Shown here: positions 43,484-63,927 of the stretch, one piece after another
Numbering within the stretch: the stretch's first letter is position 1
Layout of the letters: each line of letters begins with the position of its first letter
NCBI GenBank assembly: GCA_028278545.1
Contig: JANQED010000128.1
Coordinates: 11,561 to 75,560 of the forward strand
Source: Anaerolineales bacterium
GTDB taxonomy: Bacteria; Chloroflexota; Anaerolineae; Anaerolineales; UBA11858
Direction of reading: 5' to 3'
Length of the DNA stretch: 64,000 nucleotides
Translations under genes and position numbers: made by a program
The notes under the pieces: model-generated
What the model saw: only the letters and a program-made list of their open reading frames with translations
The model's database searches: none
Told to the model about the DNA's origin: nothing

Positions 43484-44569
43484 ATGACTAAAAGACTATC
43501 CATCCCCTTATTGATCGCCATCTTATCTGCAATGCTGATGAGCAGCATGGCCCTGGCAGCCGAGGATACGCCTCAAGGCCGCGGGCAGAGCATGTATGGT
43601 GAGATCGTCGCTGTCGCTGTTGACGGTTTTACCGTACAGAATCAGGCTGGTGAGCAGGTTACTTATCTCATTGATGAGAAAACCAGCTACAGGTCTTCAG
43701 AGATCGAGGAGCCGGGTCTCTCGGATTTGCAGGTTGGCGGCAAAGTGGCTGTTTTTGCACCAGGAAGGCCCCCAGAGAGTCCGACAGCTCGCCTGGTGAT
43801 CTTGCTGCCCGATGATTTCGACCCCAGCCAATGGGCGGGCGTTCGGGCACGCGGTGAAATCGTCGCGGTTGACCTGGATGCGGGCAGCTTCGTCCTGCAA
43901 ACCAATTCCGGCGAGGAACGGCCCTTTTTGGTTGACGACACAACCCGATACTTCGGTCAGTTATCAGGCTTGCGTGATTTGCAGAGTGGTTGGGAAGCTG
44001 GTGTCGGTGGCGTGGAGACCGATGATGGCGACCTGTTAGCTAAATTCGTCATTGGTGTCGATATTCAGAACGCCAAAATCCACGCTGGTACGATCACCGG
44101 GGTGATCCCTAGCGCGGGAACATTCACCCTGCAAACTCGCCAGGGTGAAGAATGGACCGTCGCTGTAGATGAAAACACCCGTTACAACAGCAGGGCTGGC
44201 GAAATTGCCGGCCTTGATGATCTGGTTCCAGATATGGTGGCGATGGTCTATGGTTCCCCTCAAGATGAGGGTGTTTTCCTGGCAAAACGCGTCATTGCTG
44301 TAGATGTCGAAGACCTGCCCAACTACGATGTAAAGGCCTTTGGTCAAATTACCGCTGTTAGCGAAGATTCGTTCACCATCCAACCCCGTAACGGTGATGA
44401 AAGGACCTTCTTGGTTGACGAAGAAACCAGCTTTCGCGCCCGCGAGGGCGAAGTGAATGGTTTAGATGATCTGGAAGACGGCATGTTTGCCCTTGTGGGT
44501 GCGTACGAAACGGAAGATGGGCAGTTGCTCGCTAAACTGATCTTCGTGAGAGCGCCTCAGACCCCCTAA
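43484..44569 (+). CDS. Secreted protein with four DUF5666-like repeats
   Basis: Signal peptide ending ALA; four ~80-aa repeats GxIxAV...F.....G.E....VDE.T.Y....L.DL..G..v.V.....A. Confidence 0.7.
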   Translation: MTKRLSIPLLIAILSAMLMSSMALAAEDTPQGRGQSMYGEIVAVAVDGFTVQNQAGEQVTYLIDEKTSYRSSEIEEPGLSDLQVGGKVAVFAPGRPPESPTARLVILLPDDFDPSQWAGVRARGEIVAVDLDAGSFVLQTNSGEERPFLVDDTTRYFGQLSGLRDLQSGWEAGVGGVETDDGDLLAKFVIGVDIQNAKIHAGTITGVIPSAGTFTLQTRQGEEWTVAVDENTRYNSRAGEIAGLDDLVPDMVAMVYGSPQDEGVFLAKRVIAVDVEDLPNYDVKAFGQITAVSEDSFTIQPRNGDERTFLVDEETSFRAREGEVNGLDDLEDGMFALVGAYETEDGQLLAKLIFVRAPQTP

Positions 44570-45788: not shown

Positions 45789-46997
45789 TCAGCCTAGAGT
45801 GTCGATCACCTCGTGCAATATCTGGCTGACGATTTCAACCTGTTCTTCCGTCATCACGCCTGAAAAAGGAATCGCGAGTCCGCGGCGGCCTAAATCTTCC
45901 GTGATGGGGAAGTCGCCCTCTTTATACCCAAAGCGTTCGACCATATATGGCTGCAAGTGAATGGGGATGAAATAGGGCCGGCTGGGGATGCCGCGTTCTT
46001 TAAGCCCCTCGGCGACTCGAAAGCGGTCGATTCCGGGAGCGAGCCGAATCACATAGACGAACCAGCTCATGCGCGTTGTGTCAGGAATAACTTTCGGTGT
46101 TTCAACACCGGGTATCTCATCCAGCCGCTCTTGGTACCAATTGGCGACTTGTTCCCGTTTGGTGAGGAGTTCATCGAGGCGGCTCATCTGCACGCGCCCA
46201 AGAGCAGCGCTCATCTCGTCAATGCGATAGTTGTAGCCCAAATAAGTGTGTTGCAGCCAGGTATCGCCGGGGGAGCGCCCCTGATTTCGCAGTGCGCACA
46301 TGATATCAGCGGCCTCATCATCGTCGGTGACGATAATTGCCCCTTCTCCGGTGGTGATCTGCTTGTTGGGGTAGAAGGCAAATACGCCATAATCGCCCAG
46401 GGTCCCCGCGGGACGTTTCTTGTACTCAGCACCGATTGCTTCGCAAGAATCCTCGATGACCGTGAGATCGAACTCTCGAGCAGTTTCGAGGATAGGGTCC
46501 ATATCCGCCGGTTGCCCAAAGACATCTACAGGAAGGATTGCTTTCAGTTGCGCCTCTGGGGATGCTCCTTTCCGGGGAAGCCATTTTCGGTTTGCCAAAT
46601 CCCCAGCGGTCAAGTCCTTCGCCGCTTGGTGAACCTGCTGGGGATCGATATTGCCTGTCAGAGGGTCTATATCTACAAATATAGGCACAGCACGCTCAAA
46701 CAGCAGCACATTCGCCGATGCAACAAATGAGAACGGCGTGGTGATCACCAGGTCACCGTCTTTGATATCTGCGGCATGAACACACAAATGCAGACCGGCG
46801 GTTCCTGAGCTGACTGCAATGGCATGTCGGCTACCGATATGATTTCGAACGGCGTCTTCGAAGCCTAGTGTCTCTCCCCCCATGCTCAGGCGCGTGGTTT
46901 CCAAGACGGCTTGAACGGCCTCTTGCTCGGTTTCTGTCAGGTCAGGGGCTGACATTGGCACAAGGGGGAAGGCGTTGGAGGGGTTTGTTTTCTTCAA
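45789..46997 (-). CDS. DegT/DnrJ/EryC1/StrS sugar aminotransferase
   Basis: AVSSGTAGLHL, TPFSFVAS, IEDSCEAIG, PLP lysine in FYPNKQITTGEG, GYNYR. Confidence 0.95.
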   Translation of the reverse strand: MKKTNPSNAFPLVPMSAPDLTETEQEAVQAVLETTRLSMGGETLGFEDAVRNHIGSRHAIAVSSGTAGLHLCVHAADIKDGDLVITTPFSFVASANVLLFERAVPIFVDIDPLTGNIDPQQVHQAAKDLTAGDLANRKWLPRKGASPEAQLKAILPVDVFGQPADMDPILETAREFDLTVIEDSCEAIGAEYKKRPAGTLGDYGVFAFYPNKQITTGEGAIIVTDDDEAADIMCALRNQGRSPGDTWLQHTYLGYNYRIDEMSAALGRVQMSRLDELLTKREQVANWYQERLDEIPGVETPKVIPDTTRMSWFVYVIRLAPGIDRFRVAEGLKERGIPSRPYFIPIHLQPYMVERFGYKEGDFPITEDLGRRGLAIPFSGVMTEEQVEIVSQILHEVIDTLG

Positions 46998-47132
46998 ATG
47001 GGAACCTTCTCTACACGTATGAAATCATAGCGCGTCGTGATTGACGGCGGCTGGAGGTTGAAAGGGGAGTTGCGGTCAACCAATTACGGCAGGAATCATA
47101 CCATAACAACCCATATGATAGAATCTCTCAGT

Positions 47133-47747
47133 ATGTTTCTCCCAGCGGATGTTCCCTTGTCGAAGCGCATCTTCGATTTATCCTTGACCATACCGGGTTT
47201 GATCCTCATTTCACCACTTTTAGCGGTCGTGGCTATTCTACTGCGACTCTTCCATGGTAAACCTGTCTTATTTAGCCAGGTGAGGCCTGGCTATCGAGGT
47301 GAGTTGTTCGCAGTATATAAGTTTCGCACCATGACCGACCGCCGCGATGATGCTGGAAATCTGCTCCCAGACGAGCAGCGCTTGACCAGGTTGGGGCGTT
47401 TTTTGCGGGGTACCAGTCTGGATGAGTTGCCGGAGTTATTCAATGTGTTGCGCGGTGAGATGAGCCTGGTAGGGCCGCGCCCTTTGTTGGTGCAATACCT
47501 GGAGCGTTACTCTCCTGAGCAAGCACGCCGCCACGATGTACTTCCAGGGATCACAGGTTGGGCGCAAATCAATGGCCGCAATGTGCTTTCTTGGGAAGAT
47601 AAGTTCCGCCTAGATGTCTGGTATGTTGATCACTGGTCTTTATGGTTGGATATCAAAATTCTGGCATTGACCTTCTGGAAAGTGATCAAGCGCGAGGGGA
47701 TCAGCCAGCCCGGTCATGCAACGGCGGAAGAATTTATGGGAAATTAG
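47133..47747 (+). CDS. Bacterial sugar transferase (PglC-like monotopic phosphoglycosyl transferase)
   Basis: KRIFD, KFRTM, SLDELPEL.NVL.GEMSLVGPRP, PGITGWAQING. Start placed at ATG 47133 (47115 is an alternative). Confidence 0.93.
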   Translation: MFLPADVPLSKRIFDLSLTIPGLILISPLLAVVAILLRLFHGKPVLFSQVRPGYRGELFAVYKFRTMTDRRDDAGNLLPDEQRLTRLGRFLRGTSLDELPELFNVLRGEMSLVGPRPLLVQYLERYSPEQARRHDVLPGITGWAQINGRNVLSWEDKFRLDVWYVDHWSLWLDIKILALTFWKVIKREGISQPGHATAEEFMGN

Positions 47748-47829
47748 GTAAAAGCGAAAGGCAGAAGGTGGGAGACTAATTGCCGTCGGCTAGACACTGA
47801 TCCCTATCAACCTGCCGCTAAAGACAAAC

Positions 47830-48726
47830 ATGAATTATATCGGTGAGATCGCTGCTCTGGCCACATCGTTGGCCTTTTCTTTTGGTTCGACTTTTCTGAC
47901 CCTTGGCGGACGCCGCGTTGGCTCGATGGTGCTCAATCGCACGCGCTTGCTGCTGGCGATCCTGTTCCTCGGCGTGACTCATTGGGCCACGTTGGGCATC
48001 CCCCTGCCGTTCCAGGCTGAACCCCGTCGCTGGCTGTGGCTGGGTCTATCCGGCATCGTCGGTTTGGTGCTGGGGGATATCTTTCTTCTCCAGGCTTTCG
48101 TGTGGATTGGGCCGCGCCTTTCGATGTTGATGATGAGTTTGGCTCCAATCTTCGCCGCCTTCCTGGCCTGGATATTTCTCGGTGAGCGCATGGTGTGGGG
48201 GCAGATTGTTGGTGTCGTCTTCACCGTGACGGGGGTGGCATGGGTAGTGCTAGAGCGCAACGGCAACAAGAAAGTTGCTAACCCCCATTTCGCCCGCGGC
48301 ATCCTCTATGGGCTGGGTGGTGCGATTGGTCAGGCAGCCGGGCTGGTGCTGGCGAAGAACGGCCTGGGCGGCGACTTCTCGCCCATCTCAGCCAACCTCA
48401 TCCGCATGATCACGGCGGCATTGGTCTTGTGGGTGATTACCTTGATCCAGCATCAGGTCAAAGCGACTGTGTTGACTTTGCATCGTAATCGCCGTGGGAT
48501 GCTGCATATTCTGTTGGGCTCGTTTTTTGGGCCTTTCCTGGGTGTCTCGCTTTCGATGTTGGCGATTCAACATGCCGAGATGGGCGTAGCCAGCACGCTG
48601 ATGGCCTTGCCTCCGGTCTTTTTGCTTCCTATAAGCTATGTTGTCTTCAAGGAGCGCTACGGCTGGGGAGCCATCCTGGGCACTTTTGTCGCTACCGCGG
48701 GTGTTGCGGTGCTGTTTCTGGTATGA
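47830..48726 (+). CDS. DMT/EamA family transporter
   Basis: About 10 TM in two repeats; LSGIVGLVLGD, LAPIFAAFLAWIFLGE. Confidence 0.9.
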   Translation: MNYIGEIAALATSLAFSFGSTFLTLGGRRVGSMVLNRTRLLLAILFLGVTHWATLGIPLPFQAEPRRWLWLGLSGIVGLVLGDIFLLQAFVWIGPRLSMLMMSLAPIFAAFLAWIFLGERMVWGQIVGVVFTVTGVAWVVLERNGNKKVANPHFARGILYGLGGAIGQAAGLVLAKNGLGGDFSPISANLIRMITAALVLWVITLIQHQVKATVLTLHRNRRGMLHILLGSFFGPFLGVSLSMLAIQHAEMGVASTLMALPPVFLLPISYVVFKERYGWGAILGTFVATAGVAVLFLV

Positions 48727-48771
48727 ACTGTGTTGGGGATCGTGGATTTCATACAGTATAATTCTCCCGCA

Positions 48772-50715
48772 ATGACGGATTCAAACGATCTTTACCGCCA
48801 GCTTTACCGCATCCGCCGCTTCGAGGAGACGGTCTTAGATAACTTCTCTAAGGGAGTGTTTTTTGGGACGACGCACACGTATTTAGGGCAGGAAGCCAAT
48901 GCAGTTGGCGTGCTGGCGCATCTGCAGGATGGCGAGATCGTTTTCAGCAATCACCGCTGCCATGGGCATTTTTTGGCCTATGGCGGTGATATGCGCGCGC
49001 TTTTTGCCGAATTGATGGGCAAGTCCACAGGGGTTTGCGGCGGGCGGGGGGGCTCTCAACATCTGCACTGGCAGAACTTCTATTCCAACGGCGTGCAGGG
49101 CGGCATCCTGCCTGTCGCTGCGGGCATGGCGCTGGCCGAAAAACGGAGGCAGAGCGGCAAACTTGTCATTGCCTTTTTGGGTGACGGCACATTCGGTGAA
49201 GGCGTGCTCTATGAGGCGCTCAACATGGCTTCGTTGTGGGAGGCGCCGATTTTGTTTGTAGTCGAGGATAACCGCATTGCCCAGACGACGCCGGTAGAAC
49301 TGGCCCTGGCCGGGTCGATAACCTCCCGGTGCATGGCCTTTGATATCCCTGCGGTTGAAATCGATTCCAGTGGCGTGTTGGAGGTCTCGTCGCATGCAGA
49401 GCGGTTATTGGATGAAATCCGACTTCAAGGTGGTCCGCGGGCTTTGGTCGTACATACCTGTCGGTTTGGGCCTCATTCCAAAGGGGATGACACGCGAGAC
49501 CCTGCGGTGGTTGCCGCCTTCAGGCGCGAACGTGATCCCCTGATGATCCATGCACCCCGCCTTGACCCGGAGGCGCGCGCCGCCATCGAAGCTGAAGTCA
49601 ACCTTGAAGTGGAAACGGCCTTTGCCCAGGCGATGGATGATCCATGGCCGGTCGCTGATTGGCAGCCGTCCGTGCAAACGACCCAACATCAACCATCAAC
49701 ATCCAGCGACCAACCTAGCGTGCTTAAATCTCTCAACGCCGCCCTTCATCAGGCCCTTTCCAAAGATGATGGTTTCGTTGTATTGGGTGAAGATATCCTG
49801 GATCCTTACGGGGGAGCGTTCAAGGTCACTCAGGGGCTCTCAGAAGCGTTTCCTGAGCGTGTTTTGACCACCCCTATCTCTGAAGCGGGCATCGTCGGTG
49901 TGGCGGCTGGGATGGCTTTACGCGGCCTGAGGCCGGTTGTGGAGATCATGTTTGGGGATTTCGTCACCCTGATCGCCGACCAGGTGATCAATCATGTTGC
50001 CAAGTTCCGCTGGATGTACAACGATCAGGTGCGAGTCCCCTTGGTGATCCGCACGCCGATGGGCGGGCGGCGCGGTTATGGCCCCACCCACAGCCAGACG
50101 CTGGAGAAGCTCTTTTTGGGTGTGCCGGGCCTGCGCGTCGTAGCGCCTACGGCCTTGGGCGCCCCGGGTGATTTGCTGGCCCAGGCCATTATAGATGACG
50201 ACCCCGTTCTGTTTGTGGAGAATAAGCTGCTGTACCTGCAAAAACTTCACCACGGAGATGTTTTGAGCGATTTTGAACTGCACAGTCATTCAGTATCTGG
50301 CACATATGCGCCTACATACACCCTTTCGATGCGGGGAGCGCCCGCGCCGGGGCTGACCATCCTGGCTTATGGGTACATGGCTGAATTAGCCCGGCAAGCA
50401 GTGTTCCAACTGGCGTATGAGCATGAGATTTTTGCTGAGTTGGTCGTGCCGACGCAGCTTTCCCCCTTTGAAAATGATCCCATCAGCGCATCCATTGGGC
50501 GCACGCGCAGAGTATTGGCCGTGGAAGAGGGCACCCTGACCCTGGGCTGGGGCGCAGAAATCCTGGCTCGCGCATCTGAAGAGATGGGGACTAATTTGCT
50601 CGTTTCTCGGCGGGTAGCGGCACGGGATTTGCCCATTCCCGCCTCGGGTCCGCTGGAACAGGCGGTGCTTCCCGGCGTCGCCGATATTGTCGAGGCTGCC
50701 CGAAAGATGGTATAA
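48772..50715 (+). CDS. Fused 2-oxoacid dehydrogenase-type E1 alpha/beta (ThDP enzyme)
   Basis: Alpha: HTYLGQEA, NHRCHGH, GRGGSQH, ThDP motif GDG...EDN, RFGPHS. Beta: LGEDI, TPISEAG, VEIMFGDF, YGPTHSQ, VEEG. Confidence 0.92.
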   Translation: MTDSNDLYRQLYRIRRFEETVLDNFSKGVFFGTTHTYLGQEANAVGVLAHLQDGEIVFSNHRCHGHFLAYGGDMRALFAELMGKSTGVCGGRGGSQHLHWQNFYSNGVQGGILPVAAGMALAEKRRQSGKLVIAFLGDGTFGEGVLYEALNMASLWEAPILFVVEDNRIAQTTPVELALAGSITSRCMAFDIPAVEIDSSGVLEVSSHAERLLDEIRLQGGPRALVVHTCRFGPHSKGDDTRDPAVVAAFRRERDPLMIHAPRLDPEARAAIEAEVNLEVETAFAQAMDDPWPVADWQPSVQTTQHQPSTSSDQPSVLKSLNAALHQALSKDDGFVVLGEDILDPYGGAFKVTQGLSEAFPERVLTTPISEAGIVGVAAGMALRGLRPVVEIMFGDFVTLIADQVINHVAKFRWMYNDQVRVPLVIRTPMGGRRGYGPTHSQTLEKLFLGVPGLRVVAPTALGAPGDLLAQAIIDDDPVLFVENKLLYLQKLHHGDVLSDFELHSHSVSGTYAPTYTLSMRGAPAPGLTILAYGYMAELARQAVFQLAYEHEIFAELVVPTQLSPFENDPISASIGRTRRVLAVEEGTLTLGWGAEILARASEEMGTNLLVSRRVAARDLPIPASGPLEQAVLPGVADIVEAARKMV

Positions 50716-50815
50716 CATATGCGGCGGCTTGCTACGCTGAATATTCTGTTACTCGATTCCATTGTTGCTCCGGGAGTCGGAGGAGTCTTCATGAACGGAC
50801 GATTACCTTGAAAGG

Positions 50816-51949
50816 GTGGGGCAGGCTGAATTGGGCACACATAATTCCATAATCATCCCCCTGATCAACCCCAACGAACCCGAGGCCTTGCTGGCCGACT
50901 TGCATGTTGAAGATGGTCAGCGGGTTGCCGCGAACGAGTTGATCTGTACGCTGGAAACGACCAAATCTACGGCTGAGGTGTTGGCCGAGGGCGAGGGCTT
51001 TATCGTTGGGCTGCGTTTCAATGTCGGTGATACGGTGCGGGCCGGGGACATTCTGTGTTATCTGGCTGACTCGCCTGATGAGTTGCCCCAAGAAGCAGAA
51101 TCAACAGCGTTGGATGCCGGCAACCAGGTTGAAGGTGAGACCGAGGCTCCCCCTGAAGGGCTGCGCATCACCCAACCAGCGCTGAATCTGGCCCGGGAGC
51201 TAGGCGTCCCATTGGATGCATTTCCGATAGGCCCCCTCGTTACTGAGCAGATGGTCAGCGCGCGGGCGCGGGATCAGGAGGTCGCCTTCCAAGTCCCCAA
51301 GGGCGAGTTCGATCCCATGGCGATCATCATCTATGGCGGCGGTGGACATGGCAAGGCGCTGCTGGACTTATTAAGGGCCTTGGGCACTTACCGCATCGTG
51401 GGATTCGTGGACGATGGTCTTGCGGCTGGCGAGCAGATCATGGGGGCACCGGTCTTGGGCACCGGGGAGGTGCTGGGGGATTTGTTCGATCAAGGTGTGC
51501 GCTTGGCGGTCAACGCCGTGGGCGGCATTGGCGATGTGGCTGTGCGGGTGGAGGTCTTCCAACGCCTGGCGGAGAACGGCTTTAGCTGCCCGGCGGTGGC
51601 CCATCCAAGGGCCTATATAGAACCAGGCGCAACGTTAGCCCCGGGAGTGCAAGTATTCCCAAACGCTTATGTGGGCAGCGATGTCCGGGTTGGTTTTGGG
51701 AGTATTGTCAATACGGGGTCAATAATCTCGCACGATTGCACCTTGGGCAACTATGTCAATATATCCCCTGGAGCCATCCTGGCAGGGGAAGTCGCCGTAG
51801 GAGATGGCGCTCTGGTGGGGATGGGGGTGACGGTCAATTTGCGAGTTGAGATCGGCGCTGGTGCCCGCGTGGGGAATGGCGCAACGGTGATATCTGATGT
51901 GCCCGCCAATGGAGTGGTGCGTGCCGGAACGATCTGGCCGGATAGATAA
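50816..51949 (+). CDS. Fusion of lipoyl domain, peripheral-subunit-binding-like domain and PglD/NeuD-type sugar acyltransferase
   Basis: Lipoyl motif LETTKSTAEV...GDTVRAGDIL; ITQPALNLARELGV (PSBD-like); YGGGGHGK...GFVDD (PglD N-domain); hexapeptide repeats with NTGSIISHDC. Start uncertain. Confidence 0.85.
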   Translation: MGQAELGTHNSIIIPLINPNEPEALLADLHVEDGQRVAANELICTLETTKSTAEVLAEGEGFIVGLRFNVGDTVRAGDILCYLADSPDELPQEAESTALDAGNQVEGETEAPPEGLRITQPALNLARELGVPLDAFPIGPLVTEQMVSARARDQEVAFQVPKGEFDPMAIIIYGGGGHGKALLDLLRALGTYRIVGFVDDGLAAGEQIMGAPVLGTGEVLGDLFDQGVRLAVNAVGGIGDVAVRVEVFQRLAENGFSCPAVAHPRAYIEPGATLAPGVQVFPNAYVGSDVRVGFGSIVNTGSIISHDCTLGNYVNISPGAILAGEVAVGDGALVGMGVTVNLRVEIGAGARVGNGATVISDVPANGVVRAGTIWPDR

Positions 51950-62708: not shown

Positions 62709-63218
62709 ATGGCGTCGCATTGGTATGTGATCCGCAGCAAACCGAGAAAAGAAGATATCGTTTGGCGACAATTACAGGCGCGAGGGCTTGAGAACTATTA
62801 TCCGCGTATTAGAGTGCATCCTGTCAACCCCCGGGCGCGCAAAGTGAAACCGTATTTCCCAGGTTATTTGTTTGTGCATGTTGATTTAGAAGACTTGGGT
62901 CTCTCGACATTCCAATGGATGCCTCATACTCTGGGCTTTGTCTCATTTGATGGGGAACCAGCCCCGGTACCTGGTCACATCGTTCAAGGATTGCAAAAGC
63001 GAATCCAAGAGATCAACGAAGCCGGGGGTGAAGTGTTTGATGGCCTGGAACGGGGCGATAAAGTCCGTATCCACGATGGGCCGTTTTCAGGGTATGAGGC
63101 GGTGTTTGATACCAGGCTGCCCGGCGAGGAGCGGGTTCGAGTTTTACTGAGGCTGATCAATGATAAGCGCCAGGTTCCCGTGGATTTGCAGGCTGGACAG
63201 ATACGTAAGTTGAAGTGA
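62709..63218 (+). CDS. Specialised NusG paralog (RfaH/UpxY-like antiterminator)
   Basis: WYVIRSKPRKE, PYFPGYLFV (NGN domain), GDKVRIHDGPFSG (KOW); first gene of a sugar operon. Confidence 0.9.
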   Translation: MASHWYVIRSKPRKEDIVWRQLQARGLENYYPRIRVHPVNPRARKVKPYFPGYLFVHVDLEDLGLSTFQWMPHTLGFVSFDGEPAPVPGHIVQGLQKRIQEINEAGGEVFDGLERGDKVRIHDGPFSGYEAVFDTRLPGEERVRVLLRLINDKRQVPVDLQAGQIRKLK

Positions 63219-63228
63219 CCATTGCAAT

Positions 63229-63927
63229 ATGAAAGTTCTCGCTGTGATCCCAGCCCGGGGCGGTTCGAAAAGTATCCCCCACAAGAATATTGTGTCTGTA
63301 GGGGGGAAACCATTGATTGCCTGGACAATTGAGGAAGCCCAAAGATCGAAACATATTGACCGGTTGATCGTCTCTACCGATAGCGATCAAATCGCTGAGA
63401 TTGCAGTTGAATATGGCGCTGAAGTGCCCTTCAAGAGACCCGCAGAACTTGCCGCCGATGATACACCGGGGATCGAGCCGATCATTCACGCTGTGCGTTG
63501 GCTGGAAGAGAATCAAGAATATAAACCGGATTGTGTGATGTGTTTGACGCCAACGTCCCCTCTGCGTTCATCGGCTGATATCGATATCGTGGTTGAACTG
63601 ATGGATCAGAAGGGAACAGATGCAGTTGTTAGCGTGGTATTGGCCAAGCATCACCCATATTGGATGAAGTCGATAAGCTCTACGGGGTTTATGCTTGATT
63701 TTCTTGCTCAAGAAGACTTTATCCCCAGGCGACAGGAATTACCACCTGTTTATGCGCTGAATGGCTCGATATACCTGGCTAGGCGAGAGATCTTGCTTGA
63801 GAAACGAACTTGGTATACATCGAAAACCTATGCTTATGTCATGCCTGAAGATCGATCTATCGACATAGATTCCCAATGGGATTTGAAGTTGGCAACGCTG
63901 ATGATGCAGGACAGGATCGGTCAATGA
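63229..63927 (+). CDS. neuA: Acylneuraminate (nonulosonate) cytidylyltransferase
   Basis: IPARGGSKSIPHKN, VSTD, RPAELA.D, PTSPLR, RQ, NGSIY, SIDID. Confidence 0.93.
   Translation: MKVLAVIPARGGSKSIPHKNIVSVGGKPLIAWTIEEAQRSKHIDRLIVSTDSDQIAEIAVEYGAEVPFKRPAELAADDTPGIEPIIHAVRWLEENQEYKPDCVMCLTPTSPLRSSADIDIVVELMDQKGTDAVVSVVLAKHHPYWMKSISSTGFMLDFLAQEDFIPRRQELPPVYALNGSIYLARREILLEKRTWYTSKTYAYVMPEDRSIDIDSQWDLKLATLMMQDRIGQ

Follow-up and report, generated by a model that had tools for sequence, protein, structure and literature searches.

The well-known routes to N-glycolyl sugars (N-glycolylneuraminic acid, Neu5Gc, and mycobacterial muramic acid) use oxygenases. Glycolyl units are also made in natural-product clusters: according to PMC6335953, SclQ1-4 and QncN/L/M turn ketose phosphates into activated glycolyl units, and PMC13249901 describes RenH/RenI as resembling Qcn7/Qcn9, which turn ketosugars into a glycolic unit, with the glycolyl supply assigned by homology. 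Here we describe a locus with relatives of these proteins in a glycan context. It lies in a window of 64,000 nucleotides from an Anaerolineales bacterium (assembly GCA_028278545.1, contig JANQED010000128.1, positions 11,561 to 75,560 of the forward strand); coordinates without a locus or genome handle are those of the window. The two central genes, hereafter the cassette, encode a thiamine diphosphate (ThDP)-dependent E1 protein and a 377-aa fusion of a lipoyl domain, a docking domain and a PglD-type sugar N-acyltransferase. A first-pass annotation had listed five contiguous genes, for a DegT aminotransferase, a PglC-like transferase, an EamA transporter, E1 and the lipoyl-PglD fusion, and all five open reading frames (ORFs) were found where it had placed them.

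We propose, tentatively and with chances that fall slightly short of even, that the locus carries out a coenzyme A (CoA)-free N-glycolylation of a UDP-4-amino sugar, likely a bacillosamine precursor. The ThDP of E1 would cleave a ketose phosphate, releasing a two-carbon glycolyl unit, and E1 would reductively acylate the lipoamide on Lys50 of the fusion to a glycolyl thioester. The lipoyl arm would then swing to the beta-helix site without CoA, where His306 would activate the C4 amine of a UDP-4-amino sugar made by a distant PglF and the neighboring DegT, while a housekeeping E3 would re-oxidize the arm. The expected product is UDP-2-acetamido-4-glycolamido-2,4,6-trideoxyglucose. The PglC-type enzyme would load it on undecaprenyl phosphate, and the glycan so started would be a wall-linked or surface polysaccharide, not an STT3 N-glycan. 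In the sequence, this scheme draws on the domain order, Lys50, His306, the loss of a G-x-P-A turn, the E1 clade and gene linkage.

The fusion protein and acyl transfer

Protein domains in the window were assigned by Pfam and TIGRFAM profile scans of the ORFs. The fusion (50816..51949, plus strand) scores 180 bits against TIGR03570 (cut-off 161) and carries PF00364 as well as PF17836 (PglD_N) and PF00132 hexapeptide repeats, that is, the PglD_N domain and left-handed beta-helix of type I sugar N-acetyltransferases; the profile scan found no E2 catalytic domain in it. An AlphaFold model built from 23 sequences has a mean predicted local distance difference test score (pLDDT) of 80, a predicted template modeling score (pTM) of 0.47 and a C-terminus below pLDDT 50. 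In this model the lipoyl, two-helix and transferase parts are separate domains; by fold it most resembles PerB, Neisseria PglB-ATD, PglD and lipoyl domains.

The lipoyl domain (aa ~10-85; 50843..51070, plus strand) is modeled with pLDDT >90. Its Lys50 (codon 50963-50965), in an ETTK motif, is invariant in 34 fusions. In a search with a profile of the fusions' lipoyl domain, RenI and three actinobacterial cluster E2s made up four of the top five scores. A biotin carrier is unlikely, since the ETTK/ETSK motif is as in RenI and the top matches of the profile are E2-type lipoyl domains.

The helical domain (aa ~112-156; 51149..51283, plus strand) was recognized as peripheral-subunit-binding-like from the structure model and a profile of its own; the first-pass annotation had passed over it. 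Pfam E3_binding did not detect the helical pair at residues ~112-156; the dedicated profile matches E2 binding domains, and three of the Ren/Qnc-like E2s score highest. We predicted docking with two copies of E1 beta, fusion residues 108-160 and three controls. The complex of E1 beta with the helical domain scored 0.67 and the best control 0.00, with runs agreeing to at least 95% and a partner pLDDT of at least 82; for calibration, 116 of 157 solved pairs reached the docking mark, as did 2 of 215 mismatched ones, figures that apply to this case only approximately. The helical domain is thereby predicted to dock on E1 beta. As like complexes have already been solved, the score shows likeness rather than binding, and the pass may stem from resemblance to solved complexes of E1 with a peripheral-subunit-binding domain, which counts against the proposed relay. 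We consider it very probable that E1 acylates the lipoyl arm of the fusion.

For the transferase domain (aa ~169-377; 51320..51949, plus strand; TIGR03570), the PDB matches by sequence and by fold are PerB, PglB-ATD and PglD, with LpxA and LpxD among the weaker ones. The GGGGH loop, the catalytic His306 (codon 51731-51733) and the GMG turn are present, and the C-terminal G-x-P-A turn is missing. His306 aligns with PerB H141 and is invariant among the fusions aligned. PMC9271549 and PMC8040287 describe two turns of type I enzymes: a conserved G-x-P-A turn at the C-terminus, with a proline that in most of these enzymes switches conformation when CoA binds, and the GMG turn, which touches pantetheine and adenine. 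Within the last 40 residues, we found G-x-P-A in 1 of 107 fusion representatives (the query and 150 database matches, filtered by a length of 335-430 aa and by the lipoyl motif) versus 20 of 21 stand-alone enzymes (taken from fetched loci, after removal of 4 of 25 rows as fusion fragments). The lost turn is consistent with a pocket that accommodates a lipoamide arm instead of CoA, but it is no proof of one.

The relay could also make an unusual acyl group and hand it from the lipoyl arm first to CoA and then to the sugar, in which case the beta-helix domain would still bind CoA. In agreement with this, and to the detriment of direct transfer, the CoA-contacting GMG turn is retained in 104 of the 107 representatives and G-x-P-A is present in 10 of 351 fusions. 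The low-confidence C-terminus of the model, which cannot show the CoA site, also counts against our proposal. Against a CoA intermediate, there is no E2 catalytic domain to put the acyl group onto CoA, and the G-x-P-A turn is gone from 106 of the 107 representatives. We regard a CoA intermediate as quite unlikely, and direct transfer to the sugar as probable.

In fusions from Ferruginibacter (L112:9980-11098, L118:9980-11101), the GNPA turn at the C-terminus is preserved, and the next gene is a second, stand-alone one of NeuD type. They form a natural comparison for CoA use.

E1 and the acyl group

The E1 gene (48772..50715, plus strand, within an ORF open from GTG 48730) encodes the alpha (~aa 1-295) and beta (~aa 313-647) halves in one frame, with PF00676, PF02779 and PF02780. 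It scores 230 bits against TIGR03182, the profile of pyruvate dehydrogenase (PDH) E1 alpha, whose cut-off is 394, while the true PDH of the source genome (G000), on contig C49, scores 452 bits. We therefore rejected a PDH identity: the window E1 is far under the cut-off and in a separate clade, and the genome owns a true PDH.

When E1 was compared with 745 plasmid records, RenH from the renieramycin cluster came out as the best match (516 bits, 42.7% across the full length). It is followed by actinobacterial clusters, and the next non-cluster matches reach at most 381 bits. The annotation of locus L085 reads ACP-E1alpha-E1beta-E2 (ACP, acyl carrier protein) next to a non-ribosomal peptide synthetase (NRPS). 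Trees built on the joined alpha and beta segments place 31 cassette E1s together with four E1s of natural-product clusters in a single clade that excludes 18 other E1s (FastTree support 0.954 with 53 rows; IQ-TREE SH-aLRT 96.6 and stem 0.49 with 37 rows, 16 having been dropped for speed). The natural-product E1s are nested inside the cassette E1s, and the clade shares motifs such as HSK[GS]DD and RGYG[PA]THSQ. Given this clade and the rankings of the lipoyl and helical profiles, the arm and E1 appear to have a common origin with the cassette of Ren type, the catalytic domain alone having been swapped. The E1 clade points to glycolyl as the acyl group, an assignment that we make with moderate confidence.

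Several observations speak against glycolyl. The role of RenH is itself a homology assignment, three actinobacterial E1s in its clade are uncharacterized, and the outgroup of the trees contains no transketolases or lipoyl-free sugar-branching E1s. The same lipoyl relay could instead start from pyruvate or another 2-oxo acid and deliver acetyl or another acyl group, so that the sugar would be plain diacetyl-bacillosamine or carry some other N-acyl group. E1 has the fold and domains of a PDH, which would suit this, the clade alone cannot give the substrate of E1, and five genomes (80-100% complete) run PglF, DegT and PglC with no fusion. On the other hand, E1 falls outside the PDH/acetoin-type group, besides its low PDH score. 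As the genome owns a PDH, it would gain little from another way of making acetyl; such a costly route is hard to explain next to a true PDH and a normal stand-alone NeuD-type acetyltransferase. We consider this explanation improbable and retain glycolyl as the likelier acyl group.

The source genome carries lipA and a lipoate ligase beside its PDH operon. Less favorably for the relay, no E3 (dihydrolipoamide dehydrogenase) was found in its 85%-complete assembly. This is probably an assembly gap, as 13 of 13 same-genus genomes have an E3 match with E 1e-100 or better.

Linkage of the cassette and the sugar acceptor

Our genome set comprised 61 genomes, the source genome and 60 relatives. The fusion was found at full length and at least 40% identity in 36 of them, in one case split over two frames. 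With G046, which has a divergent copy, excluded from both groups, 24 genomes were counted as lacking it. Cassette-type E1 was present in 35/36 genomes with the fusion and 0/24 without, PglC orthologues in 34/36 and 5/24, the DegT orthologue or a chimera of the PglF N-terminal part and DegT in 34/36 and 5/24, PglF in 33/36 and 9/24, and EamA in 24/36 and 12/24. These are hand tallies by identity cut-offs on incomplete, related genomes rather than a statistical test, and since kin are not independent, they overstate the association on which our proposal draws.

Of 36 loci from relatives, 31 have E1 beta upstream of the fusion and the remaining five offer at most 2.5 kb of upstream sequence; PglC lies within 5.4 kb upstream in 12 of the 36, from several families. 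More distant relatives came from a GTDB pattern scan, in which 430 of 441 matches encode a relative of the fusion; the counts rest on the 80 loci returned, which span Chloroflexota, Bacteroidota, Bacillota, Myxococcota, Actinomycetota, Acidobacteriota, Proteobacteria and others. Near the fusion we found E1 in 72 of the 80 loci; of the eight loci without it, four offer <100 bp of upstream sequence. PglC is close by in 21, DegT is present in 21 and EamA in none. Given its full-length presence in 36 of the 61 genomes and its relatives in 430 of the 441 pattern matches, the fusion is not a chance feature. No fusion covering 80% of the query was found among the plasmids searched, and no match among the E. 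coli genomes searched; the ESM Atlas returned only automatically named clusters of the same architecture.

The first-pass annotation had expected the five genes to be syntenic in relatives. The exact order was found again in one of the 36 relatives' loci (L039), and EamA (47830..48726, plus strand, 298 aa, PF00892) does not track the module: it is missing from 12 of the 36 fusion genomes, is independent of the fusion and accompanies PglC within the genus. We therefore gave up the fixed five-gene module; what is conserved is the pair of E1 and fusion, which is inserted into amino-sugar pathways, and the EamA transporter is likely a bystander. One could go further and see in the five genes a chance gathering with no common pathway, for which the rarity of the exact order and the independence of EamA would speak. 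The near-universal pairing of E1 and fusion and the recurrence of the PglC link across phyla make this very improbable for the set as a whole: it is largely refuted for E1, the fusion and PglC, and stands for EamA.

Some cassettes have unusual neighbors. A gene for a TPR-histidine kinase lies between E1 alpha and E1 beta in G024, and G029 has a similar protein in the same place (L040:6993-8828, L056:6687-8525). In G012, a 2187-aa RTX calcium-binding repeat protein is encoded directly upstream of E1 (L033:11771-18331, minus strand).

The PglC-type gene (47115..47747, plus strand; the ORF is extendable to GTG 47037) encodes a small monotopic phosphoglycosyl transferase of 210 aa (PF02397). Its best PDB match is the Campylobacter N,N'-diacetylbacillosaminyl-1-phosphate transferase (E 9e-65, 221 bits, versus 130 for WbaP); it is of PglC type, and its putative substrate is a bacillosamine-type sugar. 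DegT, a DegT/DnrJ pyridoxal phosphate-dependent sugar aminotransferase of 402 aa (45789..46997, minus strand; PF01041, E 4e-106), is divergent from it, the five ORFs being contiguous. The best PDB match of DegT is perosamine synthase (238 bits), ahead of entry 4ztc (142 bits), which we take to be PglE.

The first-pass annotation had suggested a search for a PglF/CapD-type dehydratase elsewhere in the genome, and one of 650 aa is indeed present on another contig (G000:C191:323975-325924), unlinked to the window. A DegT of the window type adjoins PglF in the relative locus L217, and the window DegT likely makes a UDP-4-amino sugar. Eight genomes, in which the searches show no close orthologue of the window DegT, have the PglF-N/DegT chimeras. 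In these proteins of ~630-700 aa, a PglF-like N-terminal part (CoA_binding_3) is fused to DegT, as at L070:1725-3617 and L072:6578-8464 (both minus strand), L071 and L073; the chimera genomes are G010, G014, G008 and G018, with long DegT frames also in G011, G012, G016 and G028.

Neighborhoods in other phyla show both a bacillosamine-type and other contexts. L132 (Clostridiales) combines the whole route in a single run: PglF and DegT, then a gene for a small hexapeptide protein and PglC, then E1, LplA, the fusion and E3. In L131 (Anaerocolumna xylanovorans DSM 12503), E1 and the fusion are accompanied by LplA, an E3-like gene and DegT. The cassettes of these two Clostridia (L131:8050-13420, L132:7124-12417) thus have a lipoate ligase and an E3-like gene of their own within the glycan operon. 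Another cultured bacterium with the cassette is Lujinxingia vulgaris (L125, L133). In L127 the cassette is inside a legionaminic-type cluster, and in a hand-picked subset of the GTDB loci the neighbors are mostly glycan genes (legionaminic, dTDP-sugar, Wzx, Wzm/Wzt).

These data bear on whether the cassette might glycolylate another amino sugar, such as a perosamine-type GDP-sugar or a legionaminic precursor, the link to PglC being historical. Perosamine synthase as the best solved relative of DegT weakens a simple PglE label, and PerB is the best fold match of the transferase. Since the cassette sits in legionaminic-acid or dTDP-sugar clusters in other phyla, as in L127, the acceptor varies. 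In most same-genus genomes the E1-fusion pair and the DegT-PglC-EamA group are on different contigs. Directly after PglF in the source genome, on contig C191, stands a FemAB/GNAT-type gene (L081:8932-9957, minus strand), and the same arrangement recurs in seven of the relatives' PglF loci fetched; it could encode an aminoacyl- or acyltransferase that acylates the bacillosamine amine instead. All this tells against a bacillosamine acceptor. Still, PglC stands beside the cassette in several families and in distant loci, DegT adjoins PglF or is fused to its N-terminal part, and L132 has the cassette within a PglF-DegT-PglC operon. A different acceptor thus appears unlikely, and for the bacillosamine precursor used by the window PglC the chances look somewhat better than even. 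The earlier idea of a special acyl group on a bacillosamine-type first sugar, in which that group had been left unnamed, is supported by the closest solved relative of PglC, the PglF on C191, the co-occurrence and the L132 operon. In the series of PglE, PglD and PglC that the annotation had invoked, the PglC type and the PglD fold held, and the aminotransferase proved nearest to perosamine synthase, not PglE. Likewise, of the glycan-initiation module, the acylated bacillosamine-type first sugar found support, and the five genes as one fixed module were not.

A protein glycan had also been considered. We found no STT3/PglB (PF02516) match in the source genome (85% complete), so that a protein N-glycan is unsupported. 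The genome has two LCP ligases and five Wzy_C-type matches, which together with the missing STT3 favors a wall-linked or surface polysaccharide.

A stand-alone NeuD 5 kb past the window end was considered as the partner of PglC and is unlikely, as it is inside a legionaminic-type cluster. This cluster starts at the window end (62709-63924) and continues on to G000:C165:74000-83000 (L021), with genes for a NusG-like protein, a CMP-synthetase, NeuB, ATP-grasp, HAD, NeuC, a PIG-L deacetylase, the stand-alone NeuD, a CBS-nucleotidyltransferase and a dehydratase. With its genes for ATP-grasp and PIG-L, the cluster may harbor a further exchange of acyl groups.

On the left, the locus is flanked by a gene for a UbiA-family prenyltransferase (profile scan), which the first-pass annotation had labeled menA, and on the right by what we take, from the sequence, to be ribosomal protein S15. 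A DUF5666 repeat protein gene (43484-44569, plus strand) adjoins the UbiA gene; this neighborhood is kept beside the module in several families.

Implications and comparison with known systems

A full-text literature search, with most subscription papers outside its reach, returned no description of an E1 together with a fusion of a lipoyl domain and a sugar acyltransferase. The parts are already known; the combination appears to be new. Databases name the fusion an ordinary acetyltransferase, an annotation that is probably misleading. PMC5378307 reports for Tannerella forsythia UB4 a 350-Da, possibly N-glycolyl legionaminic acid, names no gene for it, and states that its authors knew of no earlier report of this modification in bacteria; the PglD-like gene of T. 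forsythia needed an earlier start codon and resisted expression. The text and supplements searched of PMC5378307 and PMC6120980 give no description of the genes between BFO_1073 and BFO_1067, and there is no Tannerella name among the 120 homologues listed or in 10 clusters.

In a broader form, the proposal is that in many phyla the cassette replaces PglD, PerB or LegH and provides an O2- and CoA-independent route to N-glycolyl sugars, with N-glycolyl-bacillosamine, -perosamine or -legionaminic acid as products; we offer this as a possibility that falls not far short of an even bet. If true, the cassette would be a candidate source for reported N-glycolyl nonulosonic acids of unknown gene origin, a thioester route to N-glycolyl usable in anaerobes and a case in which a lipoyl arm supplies a beta-helix acyltransferase. 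Its further uses would be as a genome marker predicting N-glycolyl sugars and as a two-enzyme tool to make them. For the Anaerolineales, it would amount to a core trait that is mostly inherited (36 of the 61 genomes searched), naming a specific surface sugar for an abundant, mostly uncultured order with poorly known envelope chemistry. The contribution of the window is the pathway context: the cassette co-occurs with PglC, DegT and PglF, but not with EamA in any consistent way.

The diacetylbacillosamine route of Campylobacter and Neisseria (Pgl) and of Bacillus (EpsCNML) shares with our system a PglF-type dehydratase, a DegT aminotransferase, a PglD fold with the catalytic histidine and a PglC-type transferase. 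By contrast, in the window system PglD is fused to a lipoyl arm, has lost the CoA-linked turn and comes with its own E1, while PglF is unlinked and no STT3/PglB was found. Type I N-acetyltransferases (PerB, PglD, VioB, NeuD/LegH) have the same GGGGH Rossmann N-domain, left-handed beta-helix, His-Asp pair and GMG turn. Unlike them, the fusion has Ser before the histidine (Glu in most stand-alone enzymes sampled), no G-x-P-A turn, and N-terminal lipoyl and docking domains. LpxA and LpxD are beta-helix acyltransferases that also take the acyl group from a carrier protein rather than CoA; theirs is a free phosphopantetheinyl ACP with long chains, whereas the carrier here is a tethered lipoyl domain.

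With PDH, acetoin dehydrogenase and branched-chain 2-oxo acid dehydrogenase (BCKDH), the system shares E1 alpha and beta, a lipoyl domain, a docking domain and probably E3, but its E1 is under the PDH cut-off and in another clade, and with no E2 catalytic core, no acyl-CoA product is expected. The Qnc, Ren and Scl glycolyl cassettes share with it E1 alpha/beta of the RenH clade (42.7%), a lipoyl domain with the conserved lysine and a RenI-type docking domain. No E2 acyltransferase domain, ACP or NRPS/polyketide synthase (PKS) gene was found among the five window genes or their direct flanks. In the Qnc, Ren and Scl cassettes the last component is a classical E2 acyltransferase domain, from which an ACP is loaded for NRPS/PKS synthesis; in the window fusion a PglD-type beta-helix enzyme replaces the E2 domain, and the context is that of a glycan.

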